Source: an uncultured delta proteobacterium (GTDB lineage: Bacteria; Myxococcota; Myxococcia; Myxococcales; Myxococcaceae). Taken from it: a stretch of DNA of 64,000 nt. The stretch spans positions 1-64,000 of the forward strand of contig CAVYSY010000024.1 of NCBI GenBank assembly GCA_963771175.1. The letters are read 5' to 3'. Position numbers and translations under genes: made by a program. This document shows positions 15,643 through 35,023 of the stretch, piece after piece (position 1 is the first letter of the stretch; each line of letters starts with the position of its first letter). The notes under the pieces were generated by a model. The model saw only the letters and a list, made by a program, of their open reading frames with translations. It ran no database searches and was not told where the DNA came from.

Positions 15643-16158
15643 TCAGCGTCCCGTCATCTGCTCGCGCAGCCACTTCTCGAGCCGCACGCGGGTGATCTTC
15701 GCCTGCTCCGCGGCGGCGGTCTCCACCTCCTCGGTCTTCTCTCGCTGCAACCGCTGCTCGAGGAGGGCCAGCATCTCCGGCGCGCTCTTCCCCGTCGCGA
15801 AGACGATGAAGATGAACCCGAACTTCTCGAAGTACTCGTCGTTCAGCTTCGCGAGCCGCTCCAGGGTCTCGGTGTCCGCCTGCGCCACCGCGCGCTGCTC
15901 ACCCTTGCACCATTCCGCGGACTTCTCGCTCTGGGGCGCCGCCTTCTTGTTCTGACCGATGCGCGGGTGCGCGGCGAAGGCCTCGAGGAAGTCCTTCGCC
16001 CCGAGCGACCACCACACCGCCTCCGCCGCCGCGAAGAGGGCACGCACGCTCGCGAACGGCCGCCGCGCGCTCATCCCGTCGACCCAGGCGAGCGAGCCGC
16101 AGAAGGACTGAAGCACCGTGCGCGCCTCCGACTCACCGAGCGCGTTCAAGCGCCGCAT
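15643..16158 (-). CDS. uraD: OHCU decarboxylase (possibly the C-terminal domain of an allantoicase fusion)
   Basis: AHPRIG, EQRAV, YFEKFGFIFIVFA, EQAKITRVRL. Confidence 0.9.
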   Translation of the reverse strand: MRRLNALGESEARTVLQSFCGSLAWVDGMSARRPFASVRALFAAAEAVWWSLGAKDFLEAFAAHPRIGQNKKAAPQSEKSAEWCKGEQRAVAQADTETLERLAKLNDEYFEKFGFIFIVFATGKSAPEMLALLEQRLQREKTEEVETAAAEQAKITRVRLEKWLREQMTGR

Positions 16159-17216
16159 CGCCGAGGCCTCCGCCTCGGTGTCGAGCGCAGTACCCGAAGA
16201 GCCGCAGCCGGTTCACGCCACCGTGCGGGAAGATGTGCACGCGCACGTGCGTGACGGGCATGGGGTAGCTCGGCTCGAGCTGGTGGCGCCGGTGCTGAAC
16301 GAGCGCCGTCTTGTCCACGAGCACGACGCCAGCCACTCGGCGCGCGGACGGAGCAGCCGCTCGCAGCGCGTCCGCGGACGATACCGCTGGCGTCCAGCGG
16401 CCTCGATGAGCGTCGCCTGCGGCGCGTTGCCCTTGAAGAAGTGCGTGTCGAGCTCGATGCGCTCGAGGACGCCGCGCCGCGCCGAGCCTCACCACGCACC
16501 AGTCGCTGCCCGGCGTGCGCCGCCGCTTCGTCTCCCAGCCGTCGCCCATGTTCACGCCGCGTCCCGGCAGGAGCAGGTTCGACGGCGGGCCGAAGAACTG
16601 GTCGCTCTTCGCCGGCGATGGTGCCGCCGTTCTCGATCGCCGCCAGGTCGACGCTGCCCGAGCGCCAGAACGTGCGCGTCCTCGGCGAGCACGACGCCGT
16701 AGACGCGCAGGCGGGCCACGCCGCCGTCCGGGTAGATGTGCAGCCGCACGTGGGTGACGCGCGGGCTCGCCTTCGCGAGCGCGAAGACGTTCGGGAAGTC
16801 CGGCTTCACCGCGCTCTGGTCGATCAGCGGAAACCACCGGCTCGTCCTCCAGGAGCGTCTGCGCCGGGGTAGCGGTGTACGGCGCCTCGATGCCCTCGAG
16901 GGACGATCTGCTGAGGCGCGTTGCCCTTGAAGTGGGTCGTGTCGACGAGCGCTCCACGCACGCTCCCTGGCGCGCCCAGCCGGATGATGGCGAAGTCGTG
17001 GCCGGGCTCGCGCTTGCGCTGCGACTCCCAGCCGTCCATCCACTTGCCCTTATCGGTGTACTCGCCCTCGAGCCACACCGGAGGGCCCGGCTTGAGCAGG
17101 TTCTCCTTCTCGGCGAAGTAGTCGTCGGTCGCGTAGAGCACGAACGTTCCGAGCAAGTCGGCCGAGAGATCCACGAGTCCCTTGAACTCCACGGGGACGG
17201 GCTGATGCGTCGACAC
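16133..17216 (-). CDS. alc: allantoicase; several frameshifts
   Basis: Two allantoicase repeats spread across frames: WMDGWESQRKR...DTTHFKGNAP...HIYPDGGVARLRVYG and MGDGWETKRRR...HIFPHGGVNRLRLFG. Confidence 0.88.
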
Positions 17217-18603: not shown

Positions 18604-20178
18604 TTACGCGCCGAAGGCTCGGATGAGCTTCACGAGGCCGTCCAGCGTCTTGGCATCCTCGACGAGCGTGGGGTTCGGCGGCATCACCGGGCTCTTCCCC
18701 ACCGCCGCACCGCCCTCCAGGATGATCTTCTTGAGGGCCTCGTCGGAGACGCTCTGCTGCCAGGACTTGTCGTTGAAGTTGCGAGGCTTCGGGTTCAGCG
18801 CCGCCGAGACCGCGCCATCGCCGCCACCCTTCGGACCGTGGCAGGTGCTGCACACGTTGGCGAAGTAGGTGCGCGACGACTCCGGCACATCCACCGCATT
18901 CAGCGCGCTCACCGTCGCGGCATCGGGAGGAGGCGGAGCGGGAATGATCGGAGGCGCGGCCAGCTCGGGCATCTTCGCGCCCTCGGGCACCTGCCCGCCC
19001 TGGGCGAACCACGCTCCGACCAGGGCGCGCTCCTCGTCCGTCATGCCCGTGAGGTTGCCGAGTGGCATCGTCTTGGTGGCCACCGCGCGGACGAAGACGC
19101 GCTCCGCGTGGGAGCGGATGGCGTCCGGCGTGTTCAGGATGATGCCCTGCGGCGGCGCGGGGAACATCGGGCTCGAGGGGCGTGCCGCGTGGCAGGTGGC
19201 GCAGCGGGTCTGCATCACGGAGGCCACCTCCTCGAACTTCACCTGCGGCTTGCCCGCGAACTGCTCGAGCGCGGGATCCGGAGGCGGCCGCGTCAGCACC
19301 ATCACCCCGAGGAGCGCGAGGGCCGTGCCCGCCCACGTCACCGGCGGCGTCCTGGTGCGGAAGTTCATCGCGTACTTCAGCCCCACGCCGACGATGAACA
19401 ACAACCCCAACACCAGCCACGGCCGCGAGCTGCCGTAGGTGCTCGGGAAGTGGTTGGAGATCATCGTGAACAGCACGGGCAGCGTCAGGTAGTGGTTCTG
19501 GATGGAGCGGCCCTTGGCACGCAGGCCGTAGCTCGTATCGACCGGCTTGCCCTCGCGGGTCATCGCGAGCATGTGCCGTTGCGCCGGGATGATCCGGAAG
19601 AACACGTTCGCGGCCATGATCGTGCCGAGCGTGGCACCCACCTGGAGGAACGCGCCGCGGGCGCTGAAGACGCGGGTGAGCGCGTACGCCAATCCGGTGA
19701 TCAGCACGAGCCCCACCGCGGCGAACGCCCGGTTGTTCTTCGACAGCGGCGTCCTCCAGAGCAGCTCGTACACGCCGTACGCGAGCGGCAGGAGGCCCAG
19801 GCTGATGGCCAGCGCCTGCGCGTGGGTGAGCGGGTAGACGCTCGGATCAATGAGCAGCGACGCACCGTTGAGGTGGAAGACGATGACGAGCAGCAGGAAG
19901 CCGCTGATCCACGTCGTGTAGCTCTCCCACTTGAACCAGTGGAGCGTGGCCGGCAGCTCGCCCTGGGCGAGCGACTTGCGCTTCACCACCTCGTAGAAGC
20001 CGCCGCTGTGGGTCATCCACAGCTCGCCGGTGACATCGCCCTCGCGAGGGCGGCTCGGAGCGGTGAGGTGGCTGTCGAGCCACATGAAGAGGAACGAATC
20101 TCCAATCCACATGATGGCCGCGATCACATGGACCCAGCGGACCAGGAGGTTCAACCATTCTTGGAAGACGGCGTACAT
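18604..20178 (-). CDS. puuD: membrane urate hydroxylase PuuD with two C-terminal c-type cytochrome domains
   Basis: RWVHVIAAIMWIG, HSGGFY, LHWFKWESYTTWISG, NHYLTLPVLFTMISNHFP. Heme motifs CATCH and CSTCH. Confidence 0.9.
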   Translation of the reverse strand: MYAVFQEWLNLLVRWVHVIAAIMWIGDSFLFMWLDSHLTAPSRPREGDVTGELWMTHSGGFYEVVKRKSLAQGELPATLHWFKWESYTTWISGFLLLVIVFHLNGASLLIDPSVYPLTHAQALAISLGLLPLAYGVYELLWRTPLSKNNRAFAAVGLVLITGLAYALTRVFSARGAFLQVGATLGTIMAANVFFRIIPAQRHMLAMTREGKPVDTSYGLRAKGRSIQNHYLTLPVLFTMISNHFPSTYGSSRPWLVLGLLFIVGVGLKYAMNFRTRTPPVTWAGTALALLGVMVLTRPPPDPALEQFAGKPQVKFEEVASVMQTRCATCHAARPSSPMFPAPPQGIILNTPDAIRSHAERVFVRAVATKTMPLGNLTGMTDEERALVGAWFAQGGQVPEGAKMPELAAPPIIPAPPPPDAATVSALNAVDVPESSRTYFANVCSTCHGPKGGGDGAVSAALNPKPRNFNDKSWQQSVSDEALKKIILEGGAAVGKSPVMPPNPTLVEDAKTLDGLVKLIRAFGA

Positions 20179-20301
20179 GGGGCGGGACTCTACCTCGTTT
20201 CCCCCCGGGTTCCGAGGGGGAACCCCGGCACATGAGAGGACGGGGACCCTGTTGAAGGGGGAAAAGGTGGAGCCGGAAAAAGCGAGCCTCCCTCAAGCGG
20301 G

Positions 20302-21006
20302 TCAGGGTTGAAGCGGATGTTCATGGGGCGCGAGCCCTACCTCCGCGCTCTCCCTCGAACCACGGCACGGCAGCGGGGAGATCGTGAGCGTGGTGCATGG
20401 ATTCATTTCCCGGGCCGGGGGATGAGCTCGTCCCCGGACGAGCACCGCGGGCAGACCCGGCACCTTGAGGAACTCGACGTGCGTGGGGCGCGGCGTCACT
20501 TCAGGCCAGCCGGGCCTCGCGAGGGCCTCCAGCAGCTCCGTCACCGGGTACTGGAAGGACTCCACTCGCGCGGCTCCCACCAGCGGCTCCTGCCCCCACG
20601 CGAGCGCGATGCGCAGCCGCTCGCAGCGCGCCAGCTCCGGCACGTACACGGGCAGCCCCGCCGGTGCGCTCCGCTCCAGGTAGCGGCAGAAGGAGACCGC
20701 CTCCTCACGGTTGAGCAATTCCGGCAGCACGTCCGCCAGGAAGCCCTCCAGCACCGCGCCGAGCTCGGGCCGCAGCGCCGGGTCCACCCACGGCAGGTGC
20801 TCACGAACCCGCGTCACCCGGTGGTGGTCCATCAGCCTCCCGGCGCGCTCCACGTCCACCCTGTTGATGCGCGCCAGCCGCTCGCGCTCCTCGGGCGCCA
20901 GTGACAGCGCGCCGAGCGCCTCCGGGGCGTCTCGCAGGTAGGACGCACGAAAGCGCGGATCCACGTGCAGCCGCGCCAACACCTCGAGCATCTGTGGGTA
21001 GCCCAT
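20302..21006 (-). CDS. putative MNIO partner protein (DUF2063/HvfC-like role); 3' end uncertain, possible indel near 20430
   Basis: Directly downstream of DUF692. LARLHVDPRFRASYLRD N-terminus and YVPELARCE motif. Confidence 0.6.
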   Translation of the reverse strand: MGYPQMLEVLARLHVDPRFRASYLRDAPEALGALSLAPEERERLARINRVDVERAGRLMDHHRVTRVREHLPWVDPALRPELGAVLEGFLADVLPELLNREEAVSFCRYLERSAPAGLPVYVPELARCERLRIALAWGQEPLVGAARVESFQYPVTELLEALARPGWPEVTPRPTHVEFLKVPGLPAVLVRGRAHPPAREMNPCTTLTISPLPCRGSRESAEVGLAPHEHPLQP

Positions 21007-21022
21007 TCTCCGCTCCTCATGT

Positions 21023-21853
21023 TCAGGCTGCGTGTGCACCGTGGCGACGGAGGATGGCGCGGGCTCGCGCCAGCTCCTCCACCAGCCTCTCGAAGGGCGG
21101 GAAGTTGCTGTCCATCTCGAAGTTCACGCCCCGCACCGGACAGCGCGGCGCCACGTACTCCAGCAGCCGCCACACCTCCTCTGGCGAGCACTCCGAGTGG
21201 CTGTCCAGCCGCAGCCCCTCCATCGTCGTGCCGCCCGCGAGGTGAATCTGCACCACCCGCTCCAGCGGCAGCTTCTCCAGATAGCGGTACGGGTCGAACC
21301 TCCGGTTCACCGCGTTGCAGTGCAGGTTGTGCAAGTCCAGCAGCAGCCCGCAGTCCGCCTCCGTCACCACGCGCCGCAGGAAGTCCGCCTCGTCCAGCGT
21401 GGACTGCCCGTCATCAAACAGCCAGGCGATGTTCTCCACCACGAAGGGCCGGCCCAGCTCCGCCTGCACCCGGCGGATGTTGCGCACGCACGTCTCCAGC
21501 GCCTCCTCCACCCGAGGCACCGGCGTGAGGGCGCGCAGCGGCAGCCCGCCCACGCGCGTGAAGCACAGGTGGTCCCCGTGCCACACGCTCTTCGTCAGCC
21601 GCGCCACCCGTTCCACCCCCTCGCGGTAGCCCGGCGCGTCCACCCCGTCCGAGCCCACTGACAGCTCCAGGCTGTGACCCGCAATCGGGAAGCGCCTCGC
21701 CAGCAGCTCCAGCCGCCGCTGCGCATCCTCCGTGAGCGGCAGGAAGTGCTCCGGTGTCACCTCCAGCCAGTCCACGCCCGGGTTGCCTCGCGCCAGGTGC
21801 GGCTGCAACTCCCAGCGGTAGCTCAGCCCCACTCCAATGAAGGGAATGCCCAT
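21023..21853 (-). CDS. DUF692 family multinuclear non-heme iron oxidative enzyme (MNIO)
   Basis: DWLEVTPEHF, GHSLELSVG, GDHLCF, VENI, LLLDLHNL, QIHLAGG, DSHS, FEMD. Confidence 0.92.
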   Translation of the reverse strand: MGIPFIGVGLSYRWELQPHLARGNPGVDWLEVTPEHFLPLTEDAQRRLELLARRFPIAGHSLELSVGSDGVDAPGYREGVERVARLTKSVWHGDHLCFTRVGGLPLRALTPVPRVEEALETCVRNIRRVQAELGRPFVVENIAWLFDDGQSTLDEADFLRRVVTEADCGLLLDLHNLHCNAVNRRFDPYRYLEKLPLERVVQIHLAGGTTMEGLRLDSHSECSPEEVWRLLEYVAPRCPVRGVNFEMDSNFPPFERLVEELARARAILRRHGAHAA

Positions 21854-21866
21854 GGCCCGCCTCCTC

Positions 21867-22700
21867 TCACGCCTTGCGGCGCGCCATCACTTGCAGGTGC
21901 TGACCCGTTGCCGCGAAGCCCTCGTGCGCCATGCGCTCCTGCAGCGCGAGGATTTCGTCGCGCGCCGCCCACGCGTCGAACTCCGGCCCGCGCGCGGCCT
22001 TCATCGCCTCCAGCAGCTCGAAGAAGAGGACGGGCTTGCCGAAAATCTCCTCCACCTCGGCACCCGCGGCCTTCACCGCCTCGTGCAGCTCCTTGAGGGT
22101 GAAGGCGTGCACCGGCAGCCCGTAGGGGCACTTCGTCCTGCCCGTCAGCAGCGTGGCGAGCGCGTCCGCGGCCTTCACGTACTTGAGCGTCCCCACGAAG
22201 GCCTCGTAGCGGTTGTCCACGCCCATCACCACCGGGCCGCCCGGCACCACCACGCGCACCAGCTCCCGAATCGCGCGCGGGTACTCGTCCAGGCAGTAGG
22301 AGACGGGATCGCCCTCGCAGAACACCAGGTCGAAGGACTCGTCCGCGAAGGGCAGCTCCACCACGTTGCCCACCACGAAGCTCGTGCGCTCCAGCAGGCC
22401 CGCCCGCGTGAAGCCCGCCCGCGCCCGCTCCAGCATGCCCGGAGAGATGTCCAGCACCGTGACGCGGTGTCCTCGCTCGGCGAAGCGTGTGCCGTACTTG
22501 CCTCCCCCACCTCCGGCGTCCAGCACGCGCAAGGAGCGCCCGTCCATGGGCAGCAGCTTCTCCACCGCCGTCCACGTCAGGTGCTCGTAGGCGAGCCAGA
22601 AGAGCTTGAGCGCCACCTGCTGCGGGCTGGCCTGGTCGTACTGCGGGGACACCTCGTCGTAGCGGCTGCTGATGGCGGCTGGGGTGATGACGGCACTCAT
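21867..22700 (-). CDS. class I SAM-dependent methyltransferase
   Basis: VLDAGGGGG motif I, LDISPGML, LPFADESFDLV, VPGG. Confidence 0.9.
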   Translation of the reverse strand: MSAVITPAAISSRYDEVSPQYDQASPQQVALKLFWLAYEHLTWTAVEKLLPMDGRSLRVLDAGGGGGKYGTRFAERGHRVTVLDISPGMLERARAGFTRAGLLERTSFVVGNVVELPFADESFDLVFCEGDPVSYCLDEYPRAIRELVRVVVPGGPVVMGVDNRYEAFVGTLKYVKAADALATLLTGRTKCPYGLPVHAFTLKELHEAVKAAGAEVEEIFGKPVLFFELLEAMKAARGPEFDAWAARDEILALQERMAHEGFAATGQHLQVMARRKA

Positions 22701-22720
22701 GGGCGGGGCTCCAGAGGGGC

Positions 22721-24817
22721 TCAATAGTTGAAGGAAACCTTGGTCAGCAGCCGGCGCTCCTGCGCGCCGTTGAAGGGCTGGTCCGAGTAGACGACGAAGA
22801 TGTCGCTCCACTGCCGGTAGTGCCAGCCGACCACCGCGTCGAGCAGGGTGCCTTTCACGTTGCTGTAGTCGGCCAGATCCGTCACTGCGCCATGTTGGAA
22901 GGTGAGGCGCGCGTAGAGGTCCGGAGTGAAGTGGTAGCGCAGCTGCGCGTAGCCGGACAGCGAGTAGCCGTCGCCCGCGGTGCCGTACAGCGGGCTGTGC
23001 TCGGGCACGCCCTTGCTGCGAGTGTAGAAGCCGCTGAGGCGGGCCACGAAGCGCGGGCCAATCTTCAGGTTGAGCGCGCCGTTGAGGCCCTGGATTTCTC
23101 CGCCGAGGAACCTGCCGCCCAGCGCCGTGAGCGTGAAGCTCTGCCAGTCGTGCGGGAAGAGGGTGAAACCCACGGTGGCCACGCGATTCTTGAAGCCCTC
23201 GTTGTCGTCGTAGATGCCGTCCAGGTAGAGGGCGAAGTCGTGGTGCAGGTAGGGCTGGAGGTTGACCCGCTGGCGGTAGCGCGTGCGCTCGTGCGCGTGG
23301 TTGCGCCGCCACAGCGAGTCCCACGTCGCGTCCAGCCGCGGCAGGAAGCGCCACTTGGGGAAGGGGTTGAGGTAGAGGTGCGTGTTCCAGCCCTGCTTGT
23401 CCGTCACCGGCGTGAAGCCCAGCGGGTTGGCGTAGTTCTTCCCGATGTCCTCGAGCTGAATCCAGAACTCGGAGAGCGTGTCGAAGCGGTGGATGCCCAG
23501 GTGGAAGGCCTCGGAGCCGGAGTTGCCCAGCGGACTCCAGCTCTTGGCGGCCTGGGCCTGGATGAACACCTCCTCGAAGAGGTGGATGTTGGCGTCGAGC
23601 CCCACGACGCTGAAGCGCGCGTCGCCCTCGCGGTTGAGGCCGGTGACGCTCAGGGCCGAGCGGTTGCCCAAATCCTGCTGGAGACGCACGACGCCCGAGT
23701 TGACGTCCTCGTAGGTGCCGTCGCCCCGGTCATCGCGGTGCTGCACGTCCAGCAGCGCGAAGCCCAGCCCGCCCTTCTTGCCGGTGAGCTGCACGCCGCC
23801 CCACACCCTGTCATGGGGACGCAGCGCGATGCGGCGCGAGGTGAACATCTTGATGGGCGTGATGAAGAGCTGCTCGCTCTCCACGAAGAAGGGACGGCGC
23901 TCGGGCAGCAGCGGCGCCTCCTGGTCCAGCAGCAGCCGGTCCTGGTCCGCGTCCGCGTCCGCGAAGTCCGGGTTGGCCGTCAGCTTCAGCGCCAGCCACG
24001 ACGTGGGGTCGATGCGCGCGTCCGCGCCCACGTTGGGCCGGAAGAAGCCGCGACCGTCGCTCGACTTGAGCGCGAGCTGCGTGGAGACGTACGGCGTGAC
24101 GCTCCACGTGGCACGCGGGCGGATGCCCTTGAGGCCCGTGAGGTGCGGGTAGCGCGACACCTTCGCCGAGTTCACCCCGTCCGGCGTCCAGTTGCTCCAC
24201 TCCTGGGTGCGGTACTGCTCCCGGTCCAGGAGCATGCCGAACGTCATCTCCTCCTGCTCCGCGAACTGGAAGTTGGCGAAGGGGATGCGGATTTCGGAAA
24301 TCCACCCGTCCTCGACGATCGTGGCCTTCGTCTCCCACTCGCCCTTCCAGTTGGTGGAGAAGGCCTCGCCGTCATCGACAATCCGCCCGTCGGTGCGCAC
24401 GCCCAGCGGGTTCGTCCAGAAGTAGTAGGCGTTGCGGTGGTCCAGGAAGGTGTCGAGGATGACGGTGATGTTGTCCTCCTGGTGGAGGAAGCCCTCGTTC
24501 TGGACGGTGTAGGCCGTCACCCGATCCGGGTTCGAGTCGATGCAGTGGAAGGCGAAGTAGAGGTTGTCCTTGTCGTAGAGGATGCGGACCTTCGTGTCGT
24601 CCTTGACGGGCCGGCCGTAGTCGACGCGCGTGAGGTACCAACCGGAGATTTCTGGCGCCGCCTGCCAGGCGGGGTCGTCCAGCTTGCCGTCGATGGTGAT
24701 GGGCTGGTCCGTGTAGGTAGCCTTCACCTGATAGGTGGATTCGGCGTGCGCCAGCACCGGCAGCAGCGCGGCGAGCAGCGCGGCGCCCCAGCGACAGGCG
24801 GGAGGAGAGGGATTCAT
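22721..24817 (-). CDS. DUF5916-type outer-membrane protein with an N-terminal CBM9-like domain
   Basis: Signal peptide, PITIDGKLDDPAW, LDTFLDHRNAYYF, LTANPDFA, LPERRPFFVE. Ends in aromatic residues (SFNY). Confidence 0.8.
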   Translation of the reverse strand: MNPSPPACRWGAALLAALLPVLAHAESTYQVKATYTDQPITIDGKLDDPAWQAAPEISGWYLTRVDYGRPVKDDTKVRILYDKDNLYFAFHCIDSNPDRVTAYTVQNEGFLHQEDNITVILDTFLDHRNAYYFWTNPLGVRTDGRIVDDGEAFSTNWKGEWETKATIVEDGWISEIRIPFANFQFAEQEEMTFGMLLDREQYRTQEWSNWTPDGVNSAKVSRYPHLTGLKGIRPRATWSVTPYVSTQLALKSSDGRGFFRPNVGADARIDPTSWLALKLTANPDFADADADQDRLLLDQEAPLLPERRPFFVESEQLFITPIKMFTSRRIALRPHDRVWGGVQLTGKKGGLGFALLDVQHRDDRGDGTYEDVNSGVVRLQQDLGNRSALSVTGLNREGDARFSVVGLDANIHLFEEVFIQAQAAKSWSPLGNSGSEAFHLGIHRFDTLSEFWIQLEDIGKNYANPLGFTPVTDKQGWNTHLYLNPFPKWRFLPRLDATWDSLWRRNHAHERTRYRQRVNLQPYLHHDFALYLDGIYDDNEGFKNRVATVGFTLFPHDWQSFTLTALGGRFLGGEIQGLNGALNLKIGPRFVARLSGFYTRSKGVPEHSPLYGTAGDGYSLSGYAQLRYHFTPDLYARLTFQHGAVTDLADYSNVKGTLLDAVVGWHYRQWSDIFVVYSDQPFNGAQERRLLTKVSFNY

Positions 24818-26103
24818 CCTTGCTCCGGGGTGGGTTGCAGGAGGGAAGCAGCGGCGGAGGGCTCCCGCACCCGCGCCATGCCGGCGAGGGCCGCGAGGAA
24901 CGCTCCGGACGACAGGAAGAAGGCGGCTCGCAGCGAGAGGTGCTGCGCCAGGAAGCCGTAGGTGACGGGCGCCACCATCTGCGCCAGCGAGGCGCACGCG
25001 GCGAGCGCCCCCATGAAGCGGCCGCGCTCCTCGCGCGGGCACACCTCGGCGAAGAGCGCCGGCAGCGAGGGCCGGAAGAGGCCGTCCGGCACCGCGAGCA
25101 GCGCCCACGTCAGCGCCAGGGCCGCCAGGGCATAGGGCGCCGGCAGCCCGCCCACCGCGCCCATGGACAGGCTGAGCACCACCAGGCCCACCAGCCCCGC
25201 GGTGATGAGGCCGCCGCGCCGCGAGAGGCCGTCCGACAGGCGCCCGCCCACCGGCTGCACGAAGGCGAAGACGAGCCACGAGGTGGCGATGAGTGGCCCC
25301 ACCCACTCCTGCGGCGCGCCCAGGCGCGTGGCGTAGAGGGGCACGTAGATCGGGTAGAGGTTGAGCGCGAAGCTGAAGAAGAACTGGAAGACGAAGAGGC
25401 CGCTCAGCGCGGGGAAGCGGCGCATGTACTCGAGGGGCGCTACCAGCCCGCGCACGGCGAGCCGCAGCGCCTCGGCGGCCCGGGGCTGACCCTCGGTGCG
25501 CGGCGGGGCCTCGGTCTCGCGGAGGCCAAAGAGCACGAGGCTCCCCCCGAGGAAGAGCGCGCCGGCGAGGAAGAAGACGCGCTCCACCGACAGCCAGCGC
25601 ACCGCCGCGGACGAGGCCACCAGCGCGGCCACGAAGGTGAGGTTGCTGGCGCTGTCCAGCAGCGCGAAGACGGTGGCCCGCTGTCTGGGTGGCGCGAAGT
25701 CGGCCACCATGGCGCTGGAGACGGGCGAGGCGCTGCGCACCATCAGCAGCTTCAGCGACAGCACCGCCGCCAGCGCCACCGCGTTGGCCGTCAGCCCCAG
25801 CATCGGCACCAGCAGCGAGGTGCCCAGTGACAGCCCCACCACGAAGCGCTTGCGCCCGAAGCGGTCCGAGAGCGCCCCCAGCACCGGCTGCGCGAAGATC
25901 GGCAGCACCGACGCCAGCGTGAAGACGACACCGATGCCCTGCAAGTCCAGCCCACGCGAGCTGAGGAACACCGGCAGCACCGGGTTGAGCAGCCCCGAGG
26001 CGAGCGTGCCCAGCAGCCCGGAGAACAGCAGCACCCGCAGGTTGCCCAGGCCCCGCGTCAGCTCATACATCTCGCGCAGCGCGCGTGCGCCCCGGGCAAT
26101 CAT
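24814..26103 (-). CDS. MFS transporter
   Basis: About 12 hydrophobic segments and GALSDRFGRK (motif A). ATGA overlaps with both neighbours. Confidence 0.9.
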   Translation of the reverse strand: MIARGARALREMYELTRGLGNLRVLLFSGLLGTLASGLLNPVLPVFLSSRGLDLQGIGVVFTLASVLPIFAQPVLGALSDRFGRKRFVVGLSLGTSLLVPMLGLTANAVALAAVLSLKLLMVRSASPVSSAMVADFAPPRQRATVFALLDSASNLTFVAALVASSAAVRWLSVERVFFLAGALFLGGSLVLFGLRETEAPPRTEGQPRAAEALRLAVRGLVAPLEYMRRFPALSGLFVFQFFFSFALNLYPIYVPLYATRLGAPQEWVGPLIATSWLVFAFVQPVGGRLSDGLSRRGGLITAGLVGLVVLSLSMGAVGGLPAPYALAALALTWALLAVPDGLFRPSLPALFAEVCPREERGRFMGALAACASLAQMVAPVTYGFLAQHLSLRAAFFLSSGAFLAALAGMARVREPSAAASLLQPTPEQG

Positions 26104-26711
26104 GACGCGCGCCCCTCGGACGCTCCGGTCTTCGGGCCCACTCCGAGGATGCGCTCCACCGCCGCGACGAGGTCTGGCACCGGCCGCACCTCCAAGGCCG
26201 TGAGCGGCTCGGCCGTGAAGCCGCTGCCCTCGGGAACCCACATGGGCACGCGCCCCGCGCCCGGGTGCACCTGGCGCACGTAGGCGTCGGCCACCTCCAG
26301 CTTGCCCTGGAGGTACTCACGCGGCGCGGGCACCAGCGCCTGCTGCCCGTCCAGCACCACGCCGGTGGCGAGGAAGGGCGAGGGCAGTGCGCGGCCCGAC
26401 AGCAGCGCCACCCATGCGATGAAGATCGGCAGCGACGCGCTGCGCCCGTCCAGCGTCAGGCCGCGCCCCTTGGGTGACACGAAGAAGTCCGTCTCGTCCC
26501 AGGGCAGCGCATAGCGCGCGCGGCCGAGCGCCCCGAGGTGCTGCACGTGGCGCTGCCAGGCCGGCGCGTAGCCATTGTCTCGCGAGAGGTCCACCCAGGC
26601 TCGACCGGTTCCGGGGCGCACCGCCACTTCCACGGCCACGGGCCGGAACACGGAGCGGCCGCCGAGGTCCGCGTGGGTGAAGAGCAGCAGGGGTGCTGTC
26701 GTCGGAGACAT
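26100..26711 (-). CDS. stand-alone Lon-like (S16) protease domain protein
   Basis: DGRSAS (cf. Lon DGPSAG), ATG 25 residues after the Ser (cf. Lon MTG) and a Lys 46 residues after it (QGKLEVA). RPGTG near the N-terminus. Confidence 0.6.
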   Translation of the reverse strand: MSPTTAPLLLFTHADLGGRSVFRPVAVEVAVRPGTGRAWVDLSRDNGYAPAWQRHVQHLGALGRARYALPWDETDFFVSPKGRGLTLDGRSASLPIFIAWVALLSGRALPSPFLATGVVLDGQQALVPAPREYLQGKLEVADAYVRQVHPGAGRVPMWVPEGSGFTAEPLTALEVRPVPDLVAAVERILGVGPKTGASEGRAS

Positions 26712-26740
26712 GGCTCGGGGCGCGGGGAGGGACGGGGGAG

Positions 26741-26780
26741 GAAAAACAACGGGCGAGGAGGGGCATGCCCCTCCCCGCCC
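26741..26780 (-). terminator. intrinsic terminator/attenuator hairpin right after the RiPP precursor gene
   Basis: Minus strand GGGCGGGGAGGGG-CATG-CCCCTCCTCGCCC followed by GTTGTTTTT. Confidence 0.7.
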
Positions 26781-26789
26781 AGACAGCAA

Positions 26790-26882
26790 CTAGGCCGCGA
26801 TGATGACGGTGCCCATGCCGTTGCTGCAGGTGCACTTGTCGGAGGTGGCGGAAACGCGGACGATCTGGGCCTTGACGTACAT
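26790..26882 (-). CDS. putative RiPP precursor peptide, 30 aa: MYVKAQIVRVSATSDKCTCSNGMGTVIIAA
   Basis: ATG preceded by AGAGG, GC-rich third codon positions, a CxC motif and a downstream hairpin. Lies between the RRE and protease genes. Confidence 0.75.
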   Translation of the reverse strand: MYVKAQIVRVSATSDKCTCSNGMGTVIIAA

Positions 26883-26948
26883 GGTGGACCTCTGTGTTTG
26901 GGGTTGAGTCCGCCGCCTTGAGACAGACTGTCTCCCGGCGACGGTGTT

Positions 26949-26972
26949 TGTATGTGCCAAATGGCACACACA
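26949..26972. promoter_or_regulatory. palindromic operator-like site upstream of the precursor
   Basis: TGTGCCA-AA-TGGCACA perfect core at 26953-26968, extendable with one mismatch. Confidence 0.45.
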
Positions 26973-27056
26973 TCTGGGGAGCCTCCAGGCACGGCACGGC
27001 CATGGGCGGCGCACGCGCCCGGAGGACTCACAATTCCTTTCAGTGCTGCTCGCGAC

Positions 27057-27338
27057 CTACTTCGCGGGGGGCTCGCAGAGACCGAGGTCCTGGAACGTGC
27101 GCACCGTCACCAGCACGTCCTCTCGGATTTCGGCCTCCTGGCCGGAGACATCGAGGCGGGCCACGATGGACTGCACGGCGCCCTCGAGCGTCGTCCCGCT
27201 CTGGCAGAGGGAGAAGATGCTCGCGGCGGTGGCGTTGATGTTGAAGACCTCGCCCGCCTCCGTGTCCAGGAGGAACCAGGCATCCTCTTGCTGCTGTACA
27301 ATGACGCCCGGCACGGGCCGGGGAAGCAACTCAGCCAT
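27057..27338 (-). CDS. stand-alone PqqD-family RiPP recognition element (RRE)
   Basis: 93 aa: LLDTEAGEVFNINATAASIFSLC...IVARLDV...IREDVLVTVRTFQDLGL. GAGGAGG RBS. Confidence 0.85.
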   Translation of the reverse strand: MAELLPRPVPGVIVQQQEDAWFLLDTEAGEVFNINATAASIFSLCQSGTTLEGAVQSIVARLDVSGQEAEIREDVLVTVRTFQDLGLCEPPAK

Positions 27339-27350
27339 CCACGCCTCCTC

Positions 27351-27380
27351 AATGGCAAACGCCCAAATGGCAAACGCCCA
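27351..27380. repeat. perfect 15-bp tandem repeat (AATGGCAAACGCCCA x2)
   Basis: Read directly. It lies just upstream of the RRE ribosome-binding site. Confidence 0.85.
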
Positions 27381-27911
27381 CCATCCACCGTCTGGGCGCC
27401 TCGCGGGGAAACCGCGTTCCCTCAGCTCATGTTCAAGACTTGTAACCCAACTCATGTCGAGAGTTGAAGGACGCCAGACGTTCCGTGAAACACTGACAAG
27501 AAACACTACCACGCACGTCCCAGTGCCCTTCACGAGGGAAGACCCGAACACACGGAGCCGGGGACGCGTCTCCGAGGCAGGGCGGCTCCGGGGGGACGTG
27601 TCTGGTTTTATCGGGGAGGCCTACTGCGGTCGGACGGCGGGGGGCCGCGGGCGCCGCAAGAGGGTCGGGAGGGCCGCTGATGGGAGCCCCCGAGCCGTGC
27701 GCCGGGCCGGTGCAGAGACGGTGCAACCCCCTGGGGGTACACGCCTCCCTTGCCAACCGGTCTCCACTTCCTTAACTTCTGGGGAAGGTGCCGAGGGGCG
27801 CCTACCCGAAAAGACGATGTCACCCTCGCCTCGCCCCGCGGTTCGACATGTTCTCGATGAGTTCCTTCCACGGCCCATGAACGGGTGAGGGCCGCCAACG
27901 AGGGATTTGTC

Positions 27912-28923: not shown

Positions 28924-30303
28924 TCAGGCGCCTGCGCCGGGCTGCCGCTCGCCCCGGACGAGCACGTTGAACTTCATGCTCGGCCCGGGCGTCGGGGTCG
29001 TCTTGGTCTCGAGCACGTAGTCCGGCGGATCGAGCGCGAGGTCCAGCTTGTGGAAGAGCCGCGCCATGGTGAGCGACATCTGCACCTCGGCCAGGCTCTT
29101 GCCCAGGCACGTGTGCGGGCCTCGCCCGTAAGGGGAGTAGACGCCGGGCTTCAGGTGCTCGGCGCGCGGCCGCGCGTAGCGGTCGATGTCGAACTTCCCC
29201 GGGTTCGGGAAGTACTCCTCCATGAAGTGCGGCACGGAGGTCGCCGCGAACAGCAGCTCGCCTTCGCGGATTCGATGCCCGCAGAACTCGAAGTCGCGCG
29301 TGGCGGTGCGCATCTGGGCGACGGCGATGGGATAGAGCCGCATCGTCTCCATGACCGCCCCGTCGATTGACGGAATCTTCTTGAGATCCTCCTCGGTGAT
29401 CGAGCCCTGGGCGAAGAGCGCGTCGGCCTCGCGCTTCACGCGCTCGAGCACCTCGGGGTGCTTGAGCACGGAGTACACGAAGGCCGAGACCGTATTGGCC
29501 ACCGTGTCGAGCCCGGCGACGAACGGCCCGGTGAGGTTGAGGATCAGATCGCTGCCCGGGATCAGCTCGGGGTCGTGCTTGTTCGCCTCCATGATGTCGT
29601 CGACGAGGTTGCGCTTCGCCGGCTCGCGCGTGCCCGCGGCGACGCTCGCCTCGTAATCGGCGATCATCTTGCGCCCGAGCTCCTCGACGCGTGCCTTGGC
29701 CCGCTGGTAGCGCGGGTCCTTGAGCAGGAACCGCGGCCGCTGGCGCGTGACCAGGACGTTCAGGATGTAGAGGATCGTCGTGCGGATGTCCTTGACGTAC
29801 TCGCGCGGCGACTGACCCACGATCATGGCGCCGAGCTGCTCGGTGACGATGTACTGCATCGCCTGCAGCACCGGCACCTTCCCACCGACGCGCCAGTCTC
29901 GGGCGAGCACCTGGTCGGTGATGGCGATGAGCTCGTCGTAGCGGCCCTTGATCGAGTCCTTCGAGTAGCCGTGGCGCATGACGGTGCGCAGCTTGTTGTG
30001 CAGCTCTCCGTCCACGCCGGTCAGCGTCTTGCTCGCGCCGTACTCGTTGACCAGGCCCTCCCAGAACTCCTTCGAGCGCAGGCTCTCGCGGCCCTCGCGC
30101 GTGCCCATGAAGTTCGCGGCCTCGACGCCAGCGATCACGGCATAGGTGGTGCCCAGCAGGTTGACGCGGAACACCGGCCCATACTCGCGATAGCAGCGGA
30201 CGAAGAACCTGGCTGGATCCTTCGCCATCTCCAGGGTGTTGCCGATCAGCGGGATGCCGCGGACGGGGCGCGGCTCTTTCAGGACGGGGGCGGTGGTTTC
30301 CAT
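28924..30303 (-). CDS. cytochrome P450
   Basis: AGLDT (I-helix), ETMR (ExxR) and the heme motif PYGRGPHTCLG. Confidence 0.93.
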   Translation of the reverse strand: METTAPVLKEPRPVRGIPLIGNTLEMAKDPARFFVRCYREYGPVFRVNLLGTTYAVIAGVEAANFMGTREGRESLRSKEFWEGLVNEYGASKTLTGVDGELHNKLRTVMRHGYSKDSIKGRYDELIAITDQVLARDWRVGGKVPVLQAMQYIVTEQLGAMIVGQSPREYVKDIRTTILYILNVLVTRQRPRFLLKDPRYQRAKARVEELGRKMIADYEASVAAGTREPAKRNLVDDIMEANKHDPELIPGSDLILNLTGPFVAGLDTVANTVSAFVYSVLKHPEVLERVKREADALFAQGSITEEDLKKIPSIDGAVMETMRLYPIAVAQMRTATRDFEFCGHRIREGELLFAATSVPHFMEEYFPNPGKFDIDRYARPRAEHLKPGVYSPYGRGPHTCLGKSLAEVQMSLTMARLFHKLDLALDPPDYVLETKTTPTPGPSMKFNVLVRGERQPGAGA

Positions 30304-30700
30304 GGGGTGCGTTTCGTTGATTTCGCGAGGGTGGGGGCCCCCCGAACAGGTGTCAAACACTTCGTACGGACAAGCACTTCGTACACGGCTGATGCGTCGC
30401 ATCCCGTACAACGTGCCTGACACCTTCCCAGCACTCGAAGGGCGGACCCATTCACCCGCGCCCCTCTCGCCGAGCCGTCCAGGTGAACGGCCGCCATGAC
30501 CCTCGCCCTATTGCGCGGCCCTCACATCCGAGACCCCCCCACCACGAGACCGGCGCCTGCACCCCTGCTGTGGTGCCGCTCGACTGAGCCGGATTGGAAC
30601 CAGGAGCCCAGTTGCGGCGCTCTCGAATCGTGGTGCCCATTCTGACGAATGAGGAAGCACCACCCGAGTTCTTCGAAGGCACGACGAAAGGACGGCCATC

Positions 30701-31770: not shown

Positions 31771-31903
31771 ATTTGAGCACTGCGGCAACACAGTCTCCTC
31801 AACCATCCCGATTACCCTAAAATCCTACTTGTAAAAGTGCTTGTGGTGCCCCCCAAACAATCATCGCTCTTCAGGAGTTTTATTTTCAATCAGGAGCCAA
31901 ACC

Positions 31904-33078
31904 GTGCTCAATACTCCCTTTTCTCCCTGGCCCTCCTTCACCGAAGAAGAAGCCAATTCTGTGCGCAATGTGATTCTATCCAACAAGGTCAACTACTGGA
32001 CCGGGCAGGAATGTCGCGAGTTTGAAAAGGAATTCGCCGCCTGGGCCGGTAGTGAGTATGCCATTGCCCTGGCCAACGGCACAGTGGCGCTGGATGTGGC
32101 GCTGCAGGCACTGGGCATCGGTGCCGGCGACGAGGTGGTGGTGACACCGCGCACCTTCCTCGCTTCGGTTTCCAGCATCGTCAACGCTGGCGCCGTGCCT
32201 GTGTTCGCCGACGTGGATCGCGACTCGCAGAACATCACCGCCGAAACCATCCGCGCGGTGCTGACACCGCGCACCCGCGCGGTGATCTGCGTGCATCTGG
32301 CCGGCTGGCCGTGCGACATGGACCCGATCATGGCGCTGGCGCCAAGCACGACCTGAAGGTGATCGAGGACTGCGCCCAGGCCCACGGCGCGCGCTACAAA
32401 GGCCGCTCGGTCGGCACCATCGGCCATGTCGGCGCCTGGTCGTTCTGCCAGGACAAGATCATGACCACCGGCGGCGAGGGCGGCATGGTCACCACCAACG
32501 ACCCGCGAGCTGTGGTCGAAGATGTGGTCGCTCAAGGACCACGGCAAGAGCTGGGAGGCGGTCTACAAGCGCCAGCAGCGCCGGGCTTCCGCTGGCTGCA
32601 CGAGAGCTTCGGCACCAACTGGCGGATGATGGAGATGCAGGCGGTGATCGGTCGCATCCAGCTGCGCCGCATGGCCGACTGGCATGCCCGCCGACTGGCC
32701 AATGCGCAGCGGATCTGGAATTGCGCGCGCCAGCTGCCCGGCCTGCGCGTGCCGGTCATTCCCGAGGACAGCGTGCATGCCGCCTACAAGTGCTATGTGT
32801 TCGTCGAACCGAAGCAGCTGAAGGCCGGCTGGGACCGCGACCGCATCCTCGGTGAAATCGCCGCACGTGGCGTGCCCTGCTCCTCCGGTTCTTGCTCCGA
32901 GGTGTACCTGGAGAAGGCCTTCGACAACACCAACTGGCGTCCGGCCAAGCGCCTGCCAGTGGCCCGTGAGCTGGGCGAGACCAGCCTGATGTTCCTGGTG
33001 CATCCGACCCTTACCGCCGCGGAAATCGACAAGACGTGCATGGTACTGGCCGAGGTGATGGCAGAGGCGACCGCGTAA
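31904..33078 (+). CDS. DegT/DnrJ/EryC1/StrS sugar aminotransferase; frameshifts near 32345, 32505 and 32575
   Basis: GTG start with a CAGGAG RBS. ANGTVAL, VHLAGWP, IEDCAQAHGA, SFCQDKIMTTGGEGG, GTNWRM. Confidence 0.88.
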
Positions 33079-33122
33079 CGGGCACGCCTTTCGCCGTCTC
33101 TGGACGGGGCGCGGCACGGCGG

Positions 33123-33170
33123 GTGCTCCGGCGCGGCGCACGGCCTTGCTGGCCCCGGCAGCCGCCCTCC
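33123..33170. repeat. 48-bp direct repeat, copy 2
   Basis: Identical to 31384-31431. Confidence 0.85.
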
Positions 33171-33233
33171 GCCTCCTCCCTTCTCCAGCCCGCCGCGCGC
33201 AGGAGGGCACGGGGAACTGGCCAAGGCTCCCCA

Positions 33234-33263
33234 TCGACAACGGCGGGACGAGGCCACCATAAT
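33234..33263 (+). promoter_or_regulatory. sigma70-like promoter (repeated at 34405-34434)
   Basis: TCGACA-N18-CATAAT about 30 nt upstream of the 142-aa ORF, conserved in both copies. Confidence 0.5.
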
Positions 33264-33293
33264 CTCCAGCCCCAACATCACCCCGAGGTTCGA

Positions 33294-33722
33294 ATGAGCG
33301 ATGGAACCGACATTGAGCAACTCGATGCCCCCCCGCCGATCTCCGCCGAGCTGCGCGCGAAGATCCTCGCGGACCCGAACGTGGCGAAGATGGCCGCGGA
33401 GCTCGAGATGGACCTCGACGAGTTCGTCAACACCGTCGGCTACTACATGAACAACCCGGGCGTGGAGCCCGCCTTCCTCGTCGTCAGCGACGAGAACCTG
33501 CGGAAGATGGGTGTCGAGCCGCCCACCGCCGAGGCCATCGAGGCCAACGTGCGCGCCAGCGTCGAGGCCATCAAGGCCGGCCAGGCTCCGAGCGGCTTCG
33601 ACGAGCCCCGCAAGAAGAACGTCGTGGACCTGGCTTCCCAGGGCGGCGCGGCCGTGAAAATCAACGCCGATCCTGGCCTCGAAGACGCGCTGAAGAAGGG
33701 CCGAACCTCGGTAAAGCCCTGA
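33294..33722 (+). CDS. acidic hypothetical protein, 142 aa (copy 1)
   Basis: ATG with a GAGG RBS. Differs from copy 2 by one residue (A/E). Confidence 0.85.
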   Translation: MSDGTDIEQLDAPPPISAELRAKILADPNVAKMAAELEMDLDEFVNTVGYYMNNPGVEPAFLVVSDENLRKMGVEPPTAEAIEANVRASVEAIKAGQAPSGFDEPRKKNVVDLASQGGAAVKINADPGLEDALKKGRTSVKP

Positions 33723-33830
33723 TTCCACGGGACTTTTCAAAAAATCTTCGTCCCCAGGAAACATCCAGCCGCAGCCCGCGATAATCCCTTCAACTCAGTA
33801 ATTTTTCCTTTCTACACAAGAGAGTGCGCC

Positions 33831-34289
33831 ATGGGCTTTATCAAGGGCATCGGCAAGGCGTTCAAGAAGATCGGTAGCTTCGCCAAGAAGGCGGTCGGCT
33901 TCGCGAGCAAGATTCTCAACGGCCCCATCGGGAAGATCGCCTCGTTCATCCCGGGCGTTGGTCCCTTCATCGCGGGCGCCTCGAAGATTGTCGGCATCGC
34001 CAACGGCGTGCTCAACGGTGGTGGCCTCAAGGGCATCATCGGCGGCCTCGTCGACAGCTTCGGCGGCGGTCTGCTCGGCAAGGCCGGTTCGCTCCTGAGC
34101 AAGACGGGTCTCGGCTCCGTCATCGGCCTGGGCTCGCAGGCCAACAGCACCGGCGGCGTCCTCGACCTGGTCAAGGGCCTGATGAGCTCCCGCAAGAACG
34201 ACCAGTCCGCTGCCGCTCAGGGCGACAAGTACAACCTGAGCCAGTTCGCCGCCTTCAAGGTCGCCGACCTGCTCCGCGCCGCCGCCTGA
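33831..34289 (+). CDS. cationic Gly-rich amphipathic protein, 152 aa (copy 1)
   Basis: MGFIKGIGKAFKKIGSFAKKAVGFASKIL... Strong codon bias and a terminator follows. Confidence 0.85.
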   Translation: MGFIKGIGKAFKKIGSFAKKAVGFASKILNGPIGKIASFIPGVGPFIAGASKIVGIANGVLNGGGLKGIIGGLVDSFGGGLLGKAGSLLSKTGLGSVIGLGSQANSTGGVLDLVKGLMSSRKNDQSAAAQGDKYNLSQFAAFKVADLLRAAA

Positions 34290-34314
34290 TCGGCCCGCAT
34301 CCGCTCTACTCCAT

Positions 34315-34350
34315 GGGGTGCACGCTCTCTGGCGTGCACCCCTTTTTCTT
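34315..34350 (+). terminator. intrinsic terminator
   Basis: GGGGTGCACGC-loop-GCGTGCACCCC followed by TTTTTCTTT. Confidence 0.85.
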
Positions 34351-34475
34351 TCCTGCCACGGCCCACAGCGCCCGCCGTCACGGGGAAGTGGCCAAGACTC
34401 CCCATCGACAACGGCGGGACGAGGCCACCATAATCTCCAGTCATTTCCAGTCCCAACATCACCCCCGAGGTTCGA

Positions 34476-34904
34476 ATGAGCGATGGAACCGACATTGAGC
34501 AACTCGATGCCCCCCCGCCGATCTCCGCCGAGCTGCGCGCGAAGATCCTCGCGGACCCGAACGTGGCGAAGATGGCCGCGGAGCTCGAGATGGACCTCGA
34601 CGAGTTCGTCAACACCGTCGGCTACTACATGAACAACCCGGGCGTGGAGCCCGCCTTCCTCGTCGTCAGCGACGAGAACCTGCGGAAGATGGGTGTCGAG
34701 CCGCCCACCGCCGAGGCCATCGAGGCCAACGTGCGCGCCAGCGTCGAGGCCATCAAGGCCGGCCAGGCTCCGAGCGGTTTCGACGAGCCCCGCAAGAAGA
34801 ACGTCGTGGACCTGGCTTCCCAGGGCGGCGAGGCCGTGAAAATCAACGCCGATCCTGGCCTCGAAGACGCGCTGAAGAAGGGCCGAACCTCGGTAAAGCC
34901 CTGA
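34476..34904 (+). CDS. acidic hypothetical protein, 142 aa (copy 2)
   Basis: Near-identical to 33294..33722. Confidence 0.85.
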   Translation: MSDGTDIEQLDAPPPISAELRAKILADPNVAKMAAELEMDLDEFVNTVGYYMNNPGVEPAFLVVSDENLRKMGVEPPTAEAIEANVRASVEAIKAGQAPSGFDEPRKKNVVDLASQGGEAVKINADPGLEDALKKGRTSVKP

Positions 34905-35023
34905 TTCCACGGGACTTTTCAAAAAATCTTCGTCCCCAGGAAACATCCAGCCGCTGCCCTCGATAATCCGTTCAAAGCAGCAACTTCAACCCCCGCAATT
35001 TTCCACACACGAGAGAGTTCGCC

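Follow-up and report, generated by a model that had tools for sequence, protein, structure and literature searches.

The stretch of DNA analyzed here, hereafter the window, is 64,000 nt long (contig CAVYSY010000024.1, positions 1-64,000 of the forward strand, assembly GCA_963771175.1) and comes from an uncultured delta proteobacterium of the Myxococcaceae. Its minus strand carries a cassette of eight genes that very probably constitutes one pathway for a peptide that is made by the ribosome and modified after translation (RiPP), in which a multinuclear nonheme iron-dependent oxidase (MNIO, DUF692) and its companions act on a 30-residue precursor. In the order of transcription, the genes are as follows.

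27057..27338, minus strand: stand-alone PqqD-type RiPP recognition element (RRE), 93 aa; PF05402, 44.4 bits, above cutoff
26790..26882, minus strand: precursor peptide, 30 aa, MYVKAQIVRVSATSDKCTCSNGMGTVIIAA; leader at about residues 1-16, constant D-K-C-x-C-x-x-G/T-M head, variable tail
26100..26711, minus strand: stand-alone Lon proteolytic-domain protein, 203 aa, with a putative Ser91-Lys137 dyad; identified by predicted fold
24814..26103, minus strand: major facilitator superfamily (MFS) transporter, 429 aa; PF07690 (MFS_1), 157.7 bits
22721..24817, minus strand: CBM9-like/DUF5916 protein, 698 aa, probably an outer-membrane barrel; PF06452 and PF19313 above cutoff
21867..22700, minus strand: class I S-adenosylmethionine (SAM)-dependent methyltransferase, 277 aa; PF13649 (Methyltransf_25), 78.6 bits
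21023..21853, minus strand: MNIO (DUF692), 276 aa; PF05114, 255.3 bits against a cutoff of 25
20302..21006, minus strand: MNIO partner with a TglI/NGO1945/MbnC-like fold (PME-type-2-like); conserved part at about residues 1-191

A first-pass annotation had proposed eight co-oriented genes in this order, and all eight open reading frames (ORFs) lie where it placed them. The ATGA overlaps that it described are present at 26100-26103 and 24814-24817, as are its later gaps of under 25 nt (20, 13, and 16 nt among the last four genes); the two gaps that come first measure 174 and 78 nt. GC content at third codon positions (GC3) is 0.86-0.97 across the eight ORFs and 0.97 in the 30-codon precursor ORF. 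This small ORF is more than a chance reading frame: D-x-C-x-C occurs in just 3 of 11,619 short Met-started ORFs of the source genome, and the peptide recurs at the same position in relatives. The cassette is also carried by contigs from other DNA runs, one of which spans 20000-26758 at ~99%, which excludes an assembly artifact and nothing more. Pfam scores above cutoff uphold the RRE, MFS, DUF5916, methyltransferase, and DUF692 labels. The third (Lon-like) and eighth (partner) genes have no Pfam or NCBIfam family above cutoff and were therefore tested by predicted structure; it is the predicted fold that bears out both labels.

The AlphaFold model of the Lon-like protein has a pLDDT of 91.8 (24-row alignment). 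All 29 rows listed by Foldseek for this model are Lon proteases (best E 3e-10, TM 0.73), and a profile search with the protein gave six weak matches, all Lon (E 0.2-1.3). In the profile alignment, Ser91 falls on the serine of the Lon DGPSA motif; it is invariant in the 24 rows, and Lys137 is kept in 23. The latter residue would complete a Ser-Lys dyad, 46 residues after Ser91, where the spacing in E. coli Lon is 43 residues. The protein therefore shares the proteolytic-domain fold and catalytic Ser position of the Lon (S16) proteases but differs in that the protease fold covers its ORF, with neither N-domain nor AAA+ module, and in its low identity to them (15-22%). In the genomes searched, the gene was seen solely inside the cassette; the homologue search covered lengths of 111-356 aa, and longer fused relatives lay outside it. 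The available text of a 2023 review of RiPP leader proteases (PMC10885120) contains none of the whole words Lon, S16, Ser-Lys, or dyad.

The MNIO falls in a subfamily of 43 clusters at 56% identity or more, separated by a gap down to 47%; the group was delimited from this gap, and as a clade it has 100/100 support. Residues H60, H95, E140, D173, N176, H204, D217, H219, and E246 are retained in 42-43 of the 43 members, and W14, R107, and H175 are private to the subfamily. Three of the ligand positions are assigned by analogy with MbnB. The spacing of the others agrees with that of the DybH ligands H65/H102, D179/H210, and D228/H230 (PMC13733907), and the enzyme is predicted to keep His/Asp/Glu ligands for three irons. 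Against the NCBIfam models of characterized subfamilies, its scores and cutoffs are 199/310 bits (BufB), 181/360 (HvfB), 114/400 (ApyH), 61/600 (ChrH, aligned only with residues 110-239), and 31/325 (MbnB). The second-best sequence match in the PDB is 8HCI, and no close MNIO was found on plasmids (best 39.5%). Two other MNIOs of the source genome (labeled C19 and C50) are 37% and 31% identical and lie in other contexts. The C50 enzyme, a third MNIO of that genome (G000:C50:143345-145303), has 652 aa with a long C-terminal extension and adjoins a sigma-factor-like gene.

For the partner, Foldseek (E 4.5e-4) ranks 8HCI and 8HI7 (TglHI) first, followed by 3DEE (NGO1945), and the VIA Z scores are 10.0 to 8hci_C, 8.3 to 3dee_A, 7.2 to Os1348, and 5.8 to MbnC. 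By its predicted fold, the protein fits the "PME-type 2" partners, which are short and have a truncated RRE (PMC12452194), and this truncation may explain the presence of a separate RRE gene. The first-pass annotation needs a small correction here: the last ~43 residues (20302-20430) are an unconserved, low-confidence extension common to one relative, P0047. A predicted complex of the peptide with MNIO, partner, and RRE scored 0.64 versus 0.52 for a control in which the MNIO was replaced; this result is not used as evidence either way.

The four remaining proteins were assigned by family. The RRE gene is retained in relatives; its best NCBIfam model is lasso_PqqD_Strm (36 bits, under the cutoff of 70), and it may be catalogued in large RRE-Finder data sets. 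The MFS transporter reaches no NCBIfam subfamily cutoff. The fifth protein scores 30.7 bits with CBM9_1 and 25.4 bits with DUF5916, the latter match being short (99 residues, aligned with the beginning of a model of 572 positions), and 0.98 against DUF5916 clusters in the Atlas. It has 14 amphipathic strand-like stretches by a crude rule, a signal-peptide-like N-terminus by eye, and a C-terminal aromatic residue, and it is probably an outer-membrane barrel. Four DUF5916 paralogues (30-34% identity) occur elsewhere in the source genome, and a search of the open literature found nothing on DUF5916. In the methyltransferase, the LDAGGGGGK motif is invariant; no specific NCBIfam cutoff is reached, and its acceptor atom is not assignable from PDB, NCBIfam, or Atlas matches.

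The precursor was examined across 107 distinct single-core sequences, which came from the loci and from the 23 matches of a profile search over 1.84 billion representatives; one 75-aa call and a seven-core fusion were left out. M1, D15, and C19 are invariant (107/107), and Y2 (106), C17 (104), I7 (103), R9 (102), and M23 (101) nearly so. The leader is hydrophilic, with no hydrophobic h-region in residues 1-16 of the 30-aa sequence by eye, and carries the motif Y-x-x-[A/S/P]-x-I, position 5 being A, S, or P; it resembles the lasso YxxP recognition motif (PMC12710340). After Met23 comes a hypervariable, T/V/A/I/S-rich tail of 7-16 residues that usually ends in A-E/Q (AE in 63 of 88, with IQ, AQ, and similar ends in the others). 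The motif CPxCGxG is found in none of the 107 precursors, which have no such Pro or Cys spacing, and a C-terminal Asp in 0 of 88. Paralogous precursors keep the head and vary the tail. When pN/pS is computed from 129 ungapped pairs sharing at least 85% identity, the leader (0.33), head (0.42), and last two residues (0.30) have low values and the tail a high one (1.9); because the pairs are non-independent and GC3 bias affects pS, the tail value is read as relaxed or diversifying selection and not as proof of positive selection.

Two unusual arrangements bear on where the modified residues lie. In one relative (L034:5586-6131, G139), a 181-aa precursor fuses seven cores; only its first unit has the Tyr leader motif (literally Y-N-K-P), and each tail passes directly into the next (E-)I-x-R-V leader motif. 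This fusion argues that the modified residues are internal, not C-terminal. This placement contrasts with the targets listed for Tgl, Apy, Mov, and Chr (Table 1, PMC12452194). Two Corallococcus-group genomes also carry enzyme-free arrays of three precursors each (L096:6711-7139 and L097:6689-7118; G366:C595 and G295:C348), located between a ZIP transporter gene and a short-chain dehydrogenase/reductase (SDR) gene. These orphan precursors keep the cassette-type leader and head, have two extra Cys in the tail (6/6), one of them terminal, and are probably processed in trans.

The cassette is conserved as a unit in many myxobacteria, predators that live in soil. The Lon-like gene scores strongly in 17 of 151 family genomes, with one further weak match, and in the 17-kb regions compared for 14 of the 16 strong relatives (two short contigs were left out) the eight genes stand in identical order in 14 of 14. 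Among 17 named loci, from Corallococcus, Archangium gephyra, Pyxidicoccus, Citreicoccus, Myxococcus sp., and unclassified Myxococcaceae, 13 carry all eight genes, and the contigs of the remaining four begin inside the cassette. Retention of a small Cys peptide and of gene order by close MNIO homologues had been named beforehand as a check, and the comparison of neighborhoods shows both. Partner, MNIO, and Lon-like genes are also present in the type strain, Corallococcus coralloides DSM 2259 (COCOR_07607, COCOR_07612; WP_014400388.1).

In one sample of 401 genomes from the phylum, three separate searches, with the Lon-like profile, the precursor profile, and a query for the MNIO subfamily, pick out an identical set of 31. 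A precursor is present in all 31, with 1-9 matches per genome. All belong to the window's family, including 20 of 21 genomes in a group read as Corallococcus (g13), 2 of 2 in g34, and 5 of 32 in g48; in the window's own genus, 1 of 12 other genomes has the cassette. Because kin are not independent, this co-occurrence shows linkage, not many origins. The flanks of the window's cassette match 0 of 20 related loci, and the insertion site is common to five of nine loci, the others sitting elsewhere. Since the flanks differ between lineages, the cassette is self-contained. The MNIO subfamily also takes in proteins of Chondromyces apiculatus (P0195, 63%) and Byssovorax, and conservation outside the Myxococcaceae rests on proteins and four short metagenome contigs.

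Candidates for additional components were rejected. The nearby cytochrome P450 gene (28924-30423) and allantoin genes share no flanks with the relatives. A radical SAM (rSAM)/SPASM gene lies upstream of the cassette in Archangium gephyra SDU49 (L036) and is present in one of the nine loci examined. That gene (L036:2327-3772, minus strand) is maturase-like, is divergent from the RRE gene, and has TIGR04463 as its best model at 221 bits, below cutoff.

Three RNA and promoter features accompany the precursor and RRE genes.

26910..27029, minus strand: three stacked RNA hairpins before the precursor ribosome-binding site (~27029-26979, 26972-26949, and 26944-26910)
26750..26781, minus strand: terminator-like hairpin of 14 pairs plus a U tract, directly 3' of the precursor stop; called from its position
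27439..27468, minus strand: weak sigma-70-like promoter candidate 5' of the RRE gene; aligned to relatives by eye

The hairpins of the RRE-precursor spacer fold at -88 kcal/mol (z -4.8). Eight spacers were aligned, all from outside the Corallococcus group (the window's and those of seven relatives; nine of 29 spacers lay outside that group, one being the window's own, and L054 was left out). In these eight chosen sequences, 94% of the cells in the two start-proximal hairpins pair, and 11 of the 21 pairs are changed at both positions; none of 500 shuffles gives so high a count, which is to be read with the structure having been derived from the same sequences. Spacers of the Corallococcus group form different hairpins, and no spacer hairpin matches Rfam at gathering score. 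The region has four terminator-like sites against 3.3 expected, so the evidence for the 3' hairpin is its position, not the count. Together, the 5' hairpins and the 3' terminator-like hairpin suggest a stabilized, abundant precursor message. The promoter candidate, which a consensus scan of the window did not call, aligns by eye with clearer TTGAC-N17-T(A/T)(G/A)AAA-like sites in several relatives. A 15-nt tandem repeat at 27340-27380, 5' of the RRE ribosome-binding site, differs by one copy more or less among related contigs. These hairpins, the precursor arrays, the hypervariable tail, and the multi-core and orphan precursors go beyond the first-pass annotation.

Comparison with known systems places the cassette near several MNIO pathways and inside none. 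In methanobactin biosynthesis (MbnABC), a short leader-type precursor with two nearby internal Cys and a related partner fold (MbnC, Z 5.8) recur. Methanobactin clusters also carry dedicated transport genes, as the cassette does. However, the cassette differs in its MbnB score (31/325 bits), discrete RRE, methyltransferase, Lon domain, and hypervariable tail, and the MbnA and MbnC models have no match in it. The lasso peptide systems are similar in having a discrete PqqD-type RRE beside a precursor and peptidase (B1/B2) and a YxxP-type leader. The RRE of the cassette scores below the lasso model cutoffs, and position 5 of its leader is A, S, or P; here the peptidase has a Lon fold rather than being a transglutaminase-like C96 enzyme, and there is no lasso cyclase among the eight genes. 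In the pearlin pathway (TglHI), whose TglI is the best structural match of the partner, the C-terminal Cys of the substrate is added by a PEARL enzyme. TglH acts on that C-terminal Cys (PMC12452194), whereas the cassette has no PEARL/LanB-like gene among its eight and only orphan precursors end in Cys.

The highest-scoring NCBIfam models for the MNIO belong to the bufferins, oxazolin, and captophorins (BufABC, HvfABC), which share an MNIO with a partner, internal Cys substrates (often K-C), and, in some precursors, repeated motifs (PMC12452194). Those systems feature Sec signal peptides, DUF2063-RRE partners, and DoxX (PMC12452194), whereas the cassette combines a discrete PqqD RRE and a non-DUF2063 partner with a leader of 16 residues that is hydrophilic, and also encodes a methyltransferase, a protease, an MFS transporter, and a barrel; neither DUF2063 nor DoxX has a Pfam match among the eight genes. 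The aminopyruvatide cluster (ApyHI and ApyS) likewise combines an MNIO, a partner, and a SAM methyltransferase, and ApyS acts on the MNIO product (PMC11117315). As described there, it targets a C-terminal Asp, needs a P450 cross-link, includes a B12-rSAM enzyme, and has no protease (PMC11117315). In contrast, the precursors here lack a C-terminal Asp, the P450 at 28924-30423 is not conserved with the cassette, no P450 or B12-rSAM gene belongs to the conserved cassette, and ApyH scores 114/400. Chryseobasin (ChrH/DybH) shares a two-Cys motif followed by G/M, and the ChrA product is S-methylated (PMC13733907), but the cassette has no CPxCGxG, no signal or lipoprotein peptide, and no counterpart of the additional helical domain that ChrH-family enzymes carry at the C-terminus (PMC13056109), and its MNIO scores 61/600 bits.

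By these defining features, the cassette is best assigned to no characterized MNIO class. The first-pass annotation likewise knew of no matching cluster, and this holds: every score is below the characterized-subfamily cutoffs, and no described pathway that matches was found. Searches of the open full-text literature, which leave out most subscription journals, found no description of the cluster, its locus tags, or its motif, and the cassette appears to be previously undescribed. In the portion of the bufferin study available, a list of DUF692 identifiers is the one place that names the C. coralloides MNIO WP_014400388.1, and no bufferin-type precursor is given for that genome (PMC12452194). 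Uncharacterized MNIO clusters are reported to number >13,500.

These data allow us to propose a pathway, which we favor while holding it tentatively, at slightly under an even chance for the whole. Hairpins bracketing the precursor message would supply peptide in excess of the enzymes, and the discrete RRE would bind the lasso-like Y-x-x-[A/S/P]-x-I leader. The MNIO and its partner would then carry out a four-electron oxidation of Cys19, and probably of Cys17, with 5-thiooxazole-type heterocycles as the likeliest outcome. Thiooxazole formation is favored because the nearest models, BufB and HvfB, are Cys-to-thiooxazole enzymes (10.64898/2026.06.05.730506) and most MNIOs act on Cys (PMC13733907). 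The methyltransferase would methylate the MNIO product, at a freed sulfur or the new N-terminus, as the ApyS precedent suggests (PMC11117315). The ATPase-less Lon domain, whose fold and Ser are in place, would remove the leader through its Ser-Lys dyad. The MFS transporter and DUF5916 barrel would carry the product across two membranes. The tail would be retained, so that each strain would make a few related peptides whose modified head is constant and whose T/V/A/I/S-rich tails differ; its retention is favored on account of the orphan tails that bear Cys and of the tail length, which is maintained, and the tail pN/pS of 1.9 with narrow composition is in keeping with it. The products most likely act outside the cell, and for their role we can only guess, either at metal binding, which is the default for the class, or at interaction between strains, to which tail variation and copy expansion point.

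Several observations weigh against this proposal. We infer the chemistry, the cleavage sites, and the function of the pathway from sequence and predicted structure, and MNIO chemistry is not predictable from distant homologues, the substrates of the family including Cys, Asp, Asn, Phe, and homocitrulline; the BufB and HvfB scores are far under their cutoffs (310 and 360), and the cassette contains no metal-homeostasis gene. C17 is replaced in three of the 107 precursors, which are distant. In a metagenome contig carrying a distant homologue (L055, 845-960), the Lon-like gene comes directly after the RRE gene, and no precursor separates the two. The pN/pS pairs are non-independent and ungapped, and GC3 bias lowers pS. 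Paralogues of one genome usually share an identical head (7/7 and 8/8 in several loci), which fits a discarded tail equally. The first-pass annotation had read the locus as a complete pathway for leader binding, oxidation, methylation, proteolysis, and transport; the annotations behind that reading stand, and the action of the enzymes on the peptide and its chemistry stay conditional.

A discarded tail is the basis of the alternative that survives best, although we consider it unlikely. Here the product would be the constant head (~D/K-C-x-C-x-x-G-M), the tail would be a follower or protease handle, ending in A-E/Q, that is removed, and extra copies would raise the dose of a methanobactin-sized metallophore. 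Conservation does fall sharply past Met23, the head is identical among paralogues, the tails of the seven-core fusion overlap with the next E-I-x-R-V leader, and extended beta-branched tails would suit a strand-binding protease. However, orphan tails have conserved extra Cys pairs, the tail G-T-V-I-x-x-A-A recurs with divergent leaders (P0145, P0146), and tails are never shorter than seven residues.

Different chemistry on the same peptide, with the rest of the pathway unchanged, seems less likely still. The C-x-C-x-x-G-M segment could undergo a ChrH/DybH-like two-Cys macrocyclization or backbone rearrangement followed by S-methylation, or Asp15 could be modified. The invariant Cys is the second, and the residues after it (a small one, then x, G/T, and Met) bear a loose likeness to CPACGMG, in which the second Cys is oxidized first (PMC13733907); Asp15 is as invariant as Cys19, and MNIOs are reported to hydroxylate or cleave Asp. 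The private W14, R107, and H175 and the closeness of the partner to TglI would also fit. Yet ChrH scores only 61/600 bits over residues 110-239, its helical domain does not fit in 276 aa (PMC13056109), and Cys17 is dispensable in 3 of 107 precursors. That the peptide is not the MNIO substrate, or that the Lon-like protein, transporter, and barrel have some other function and their genes only travel with the MNIO, is very improbable. In favor of this reading, L055 lacks a precursor at the usual place, and four further DUF5916 paralogues exist in the genome; against it, the three-way co-occurrence is exact in 31 of 401 genomes, the genes are translationally coupled, and their order is unchanged at different chromosomal sites.

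Elsewhere in the window, three sites stand apart from the cassette. An allantoicase gene in the urate/allantoin cluster (16133-17216) appears split over several frames, with only 130 aa matching PF03561 in one ORF, through a frameshift or an assembly error. A DegT/DnrJ aminotransferase gene (31841-33078) is split across two frames in a lower-GC stretch unlike its neighbors and is possibly foreign or mis-assembled. At 33036-34300, a near-identical ORF sequence occurs twice (32793-33764 and 33795-34946 start with the same translation), which suggests a local duplication or assembly repeat.

Returning to the proposed pathway with a retained tail, a bolder form of it is conceivable, if doubtful: the cassette would define a RiPP class of its own, whose dedicated maturation peptidase is a Lon domain lacking an ATPase and steered by a lasso-type RRE. 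The distinct MNIO subfamily and the methyltransferase would build an unseen headgroup on C-x-C-x-x-G-M, and expanded and orphan precursor arrays would give strain-specific sets of tails that act as signals or weapons via the DUF5916 barrel. MNIO subfamilies repeatedly yield new peptide chemistry, and this cassette brings an obvious, richly sampled substrate, which makes it testable at once. If the proposal is correct, a Lon-fold peptidase would join the known RiPP maturation proteases, and DUF5916 would gain its first functional handle. The constant, enzyme-recognized head with its freely varying tail would be a handy scaffold for peptide engineering. As far as the available text goes, no RiPP of Corallococcus is listed in a recent survey of the clusters that myxobacteria conserve (PMC12766979), though the cassette is near-universal in the group read as that genus. 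Its distinctive traits are the stand-alone Lon domain, the arrays of constant heads and variable tails, and near-fixation in one genus.

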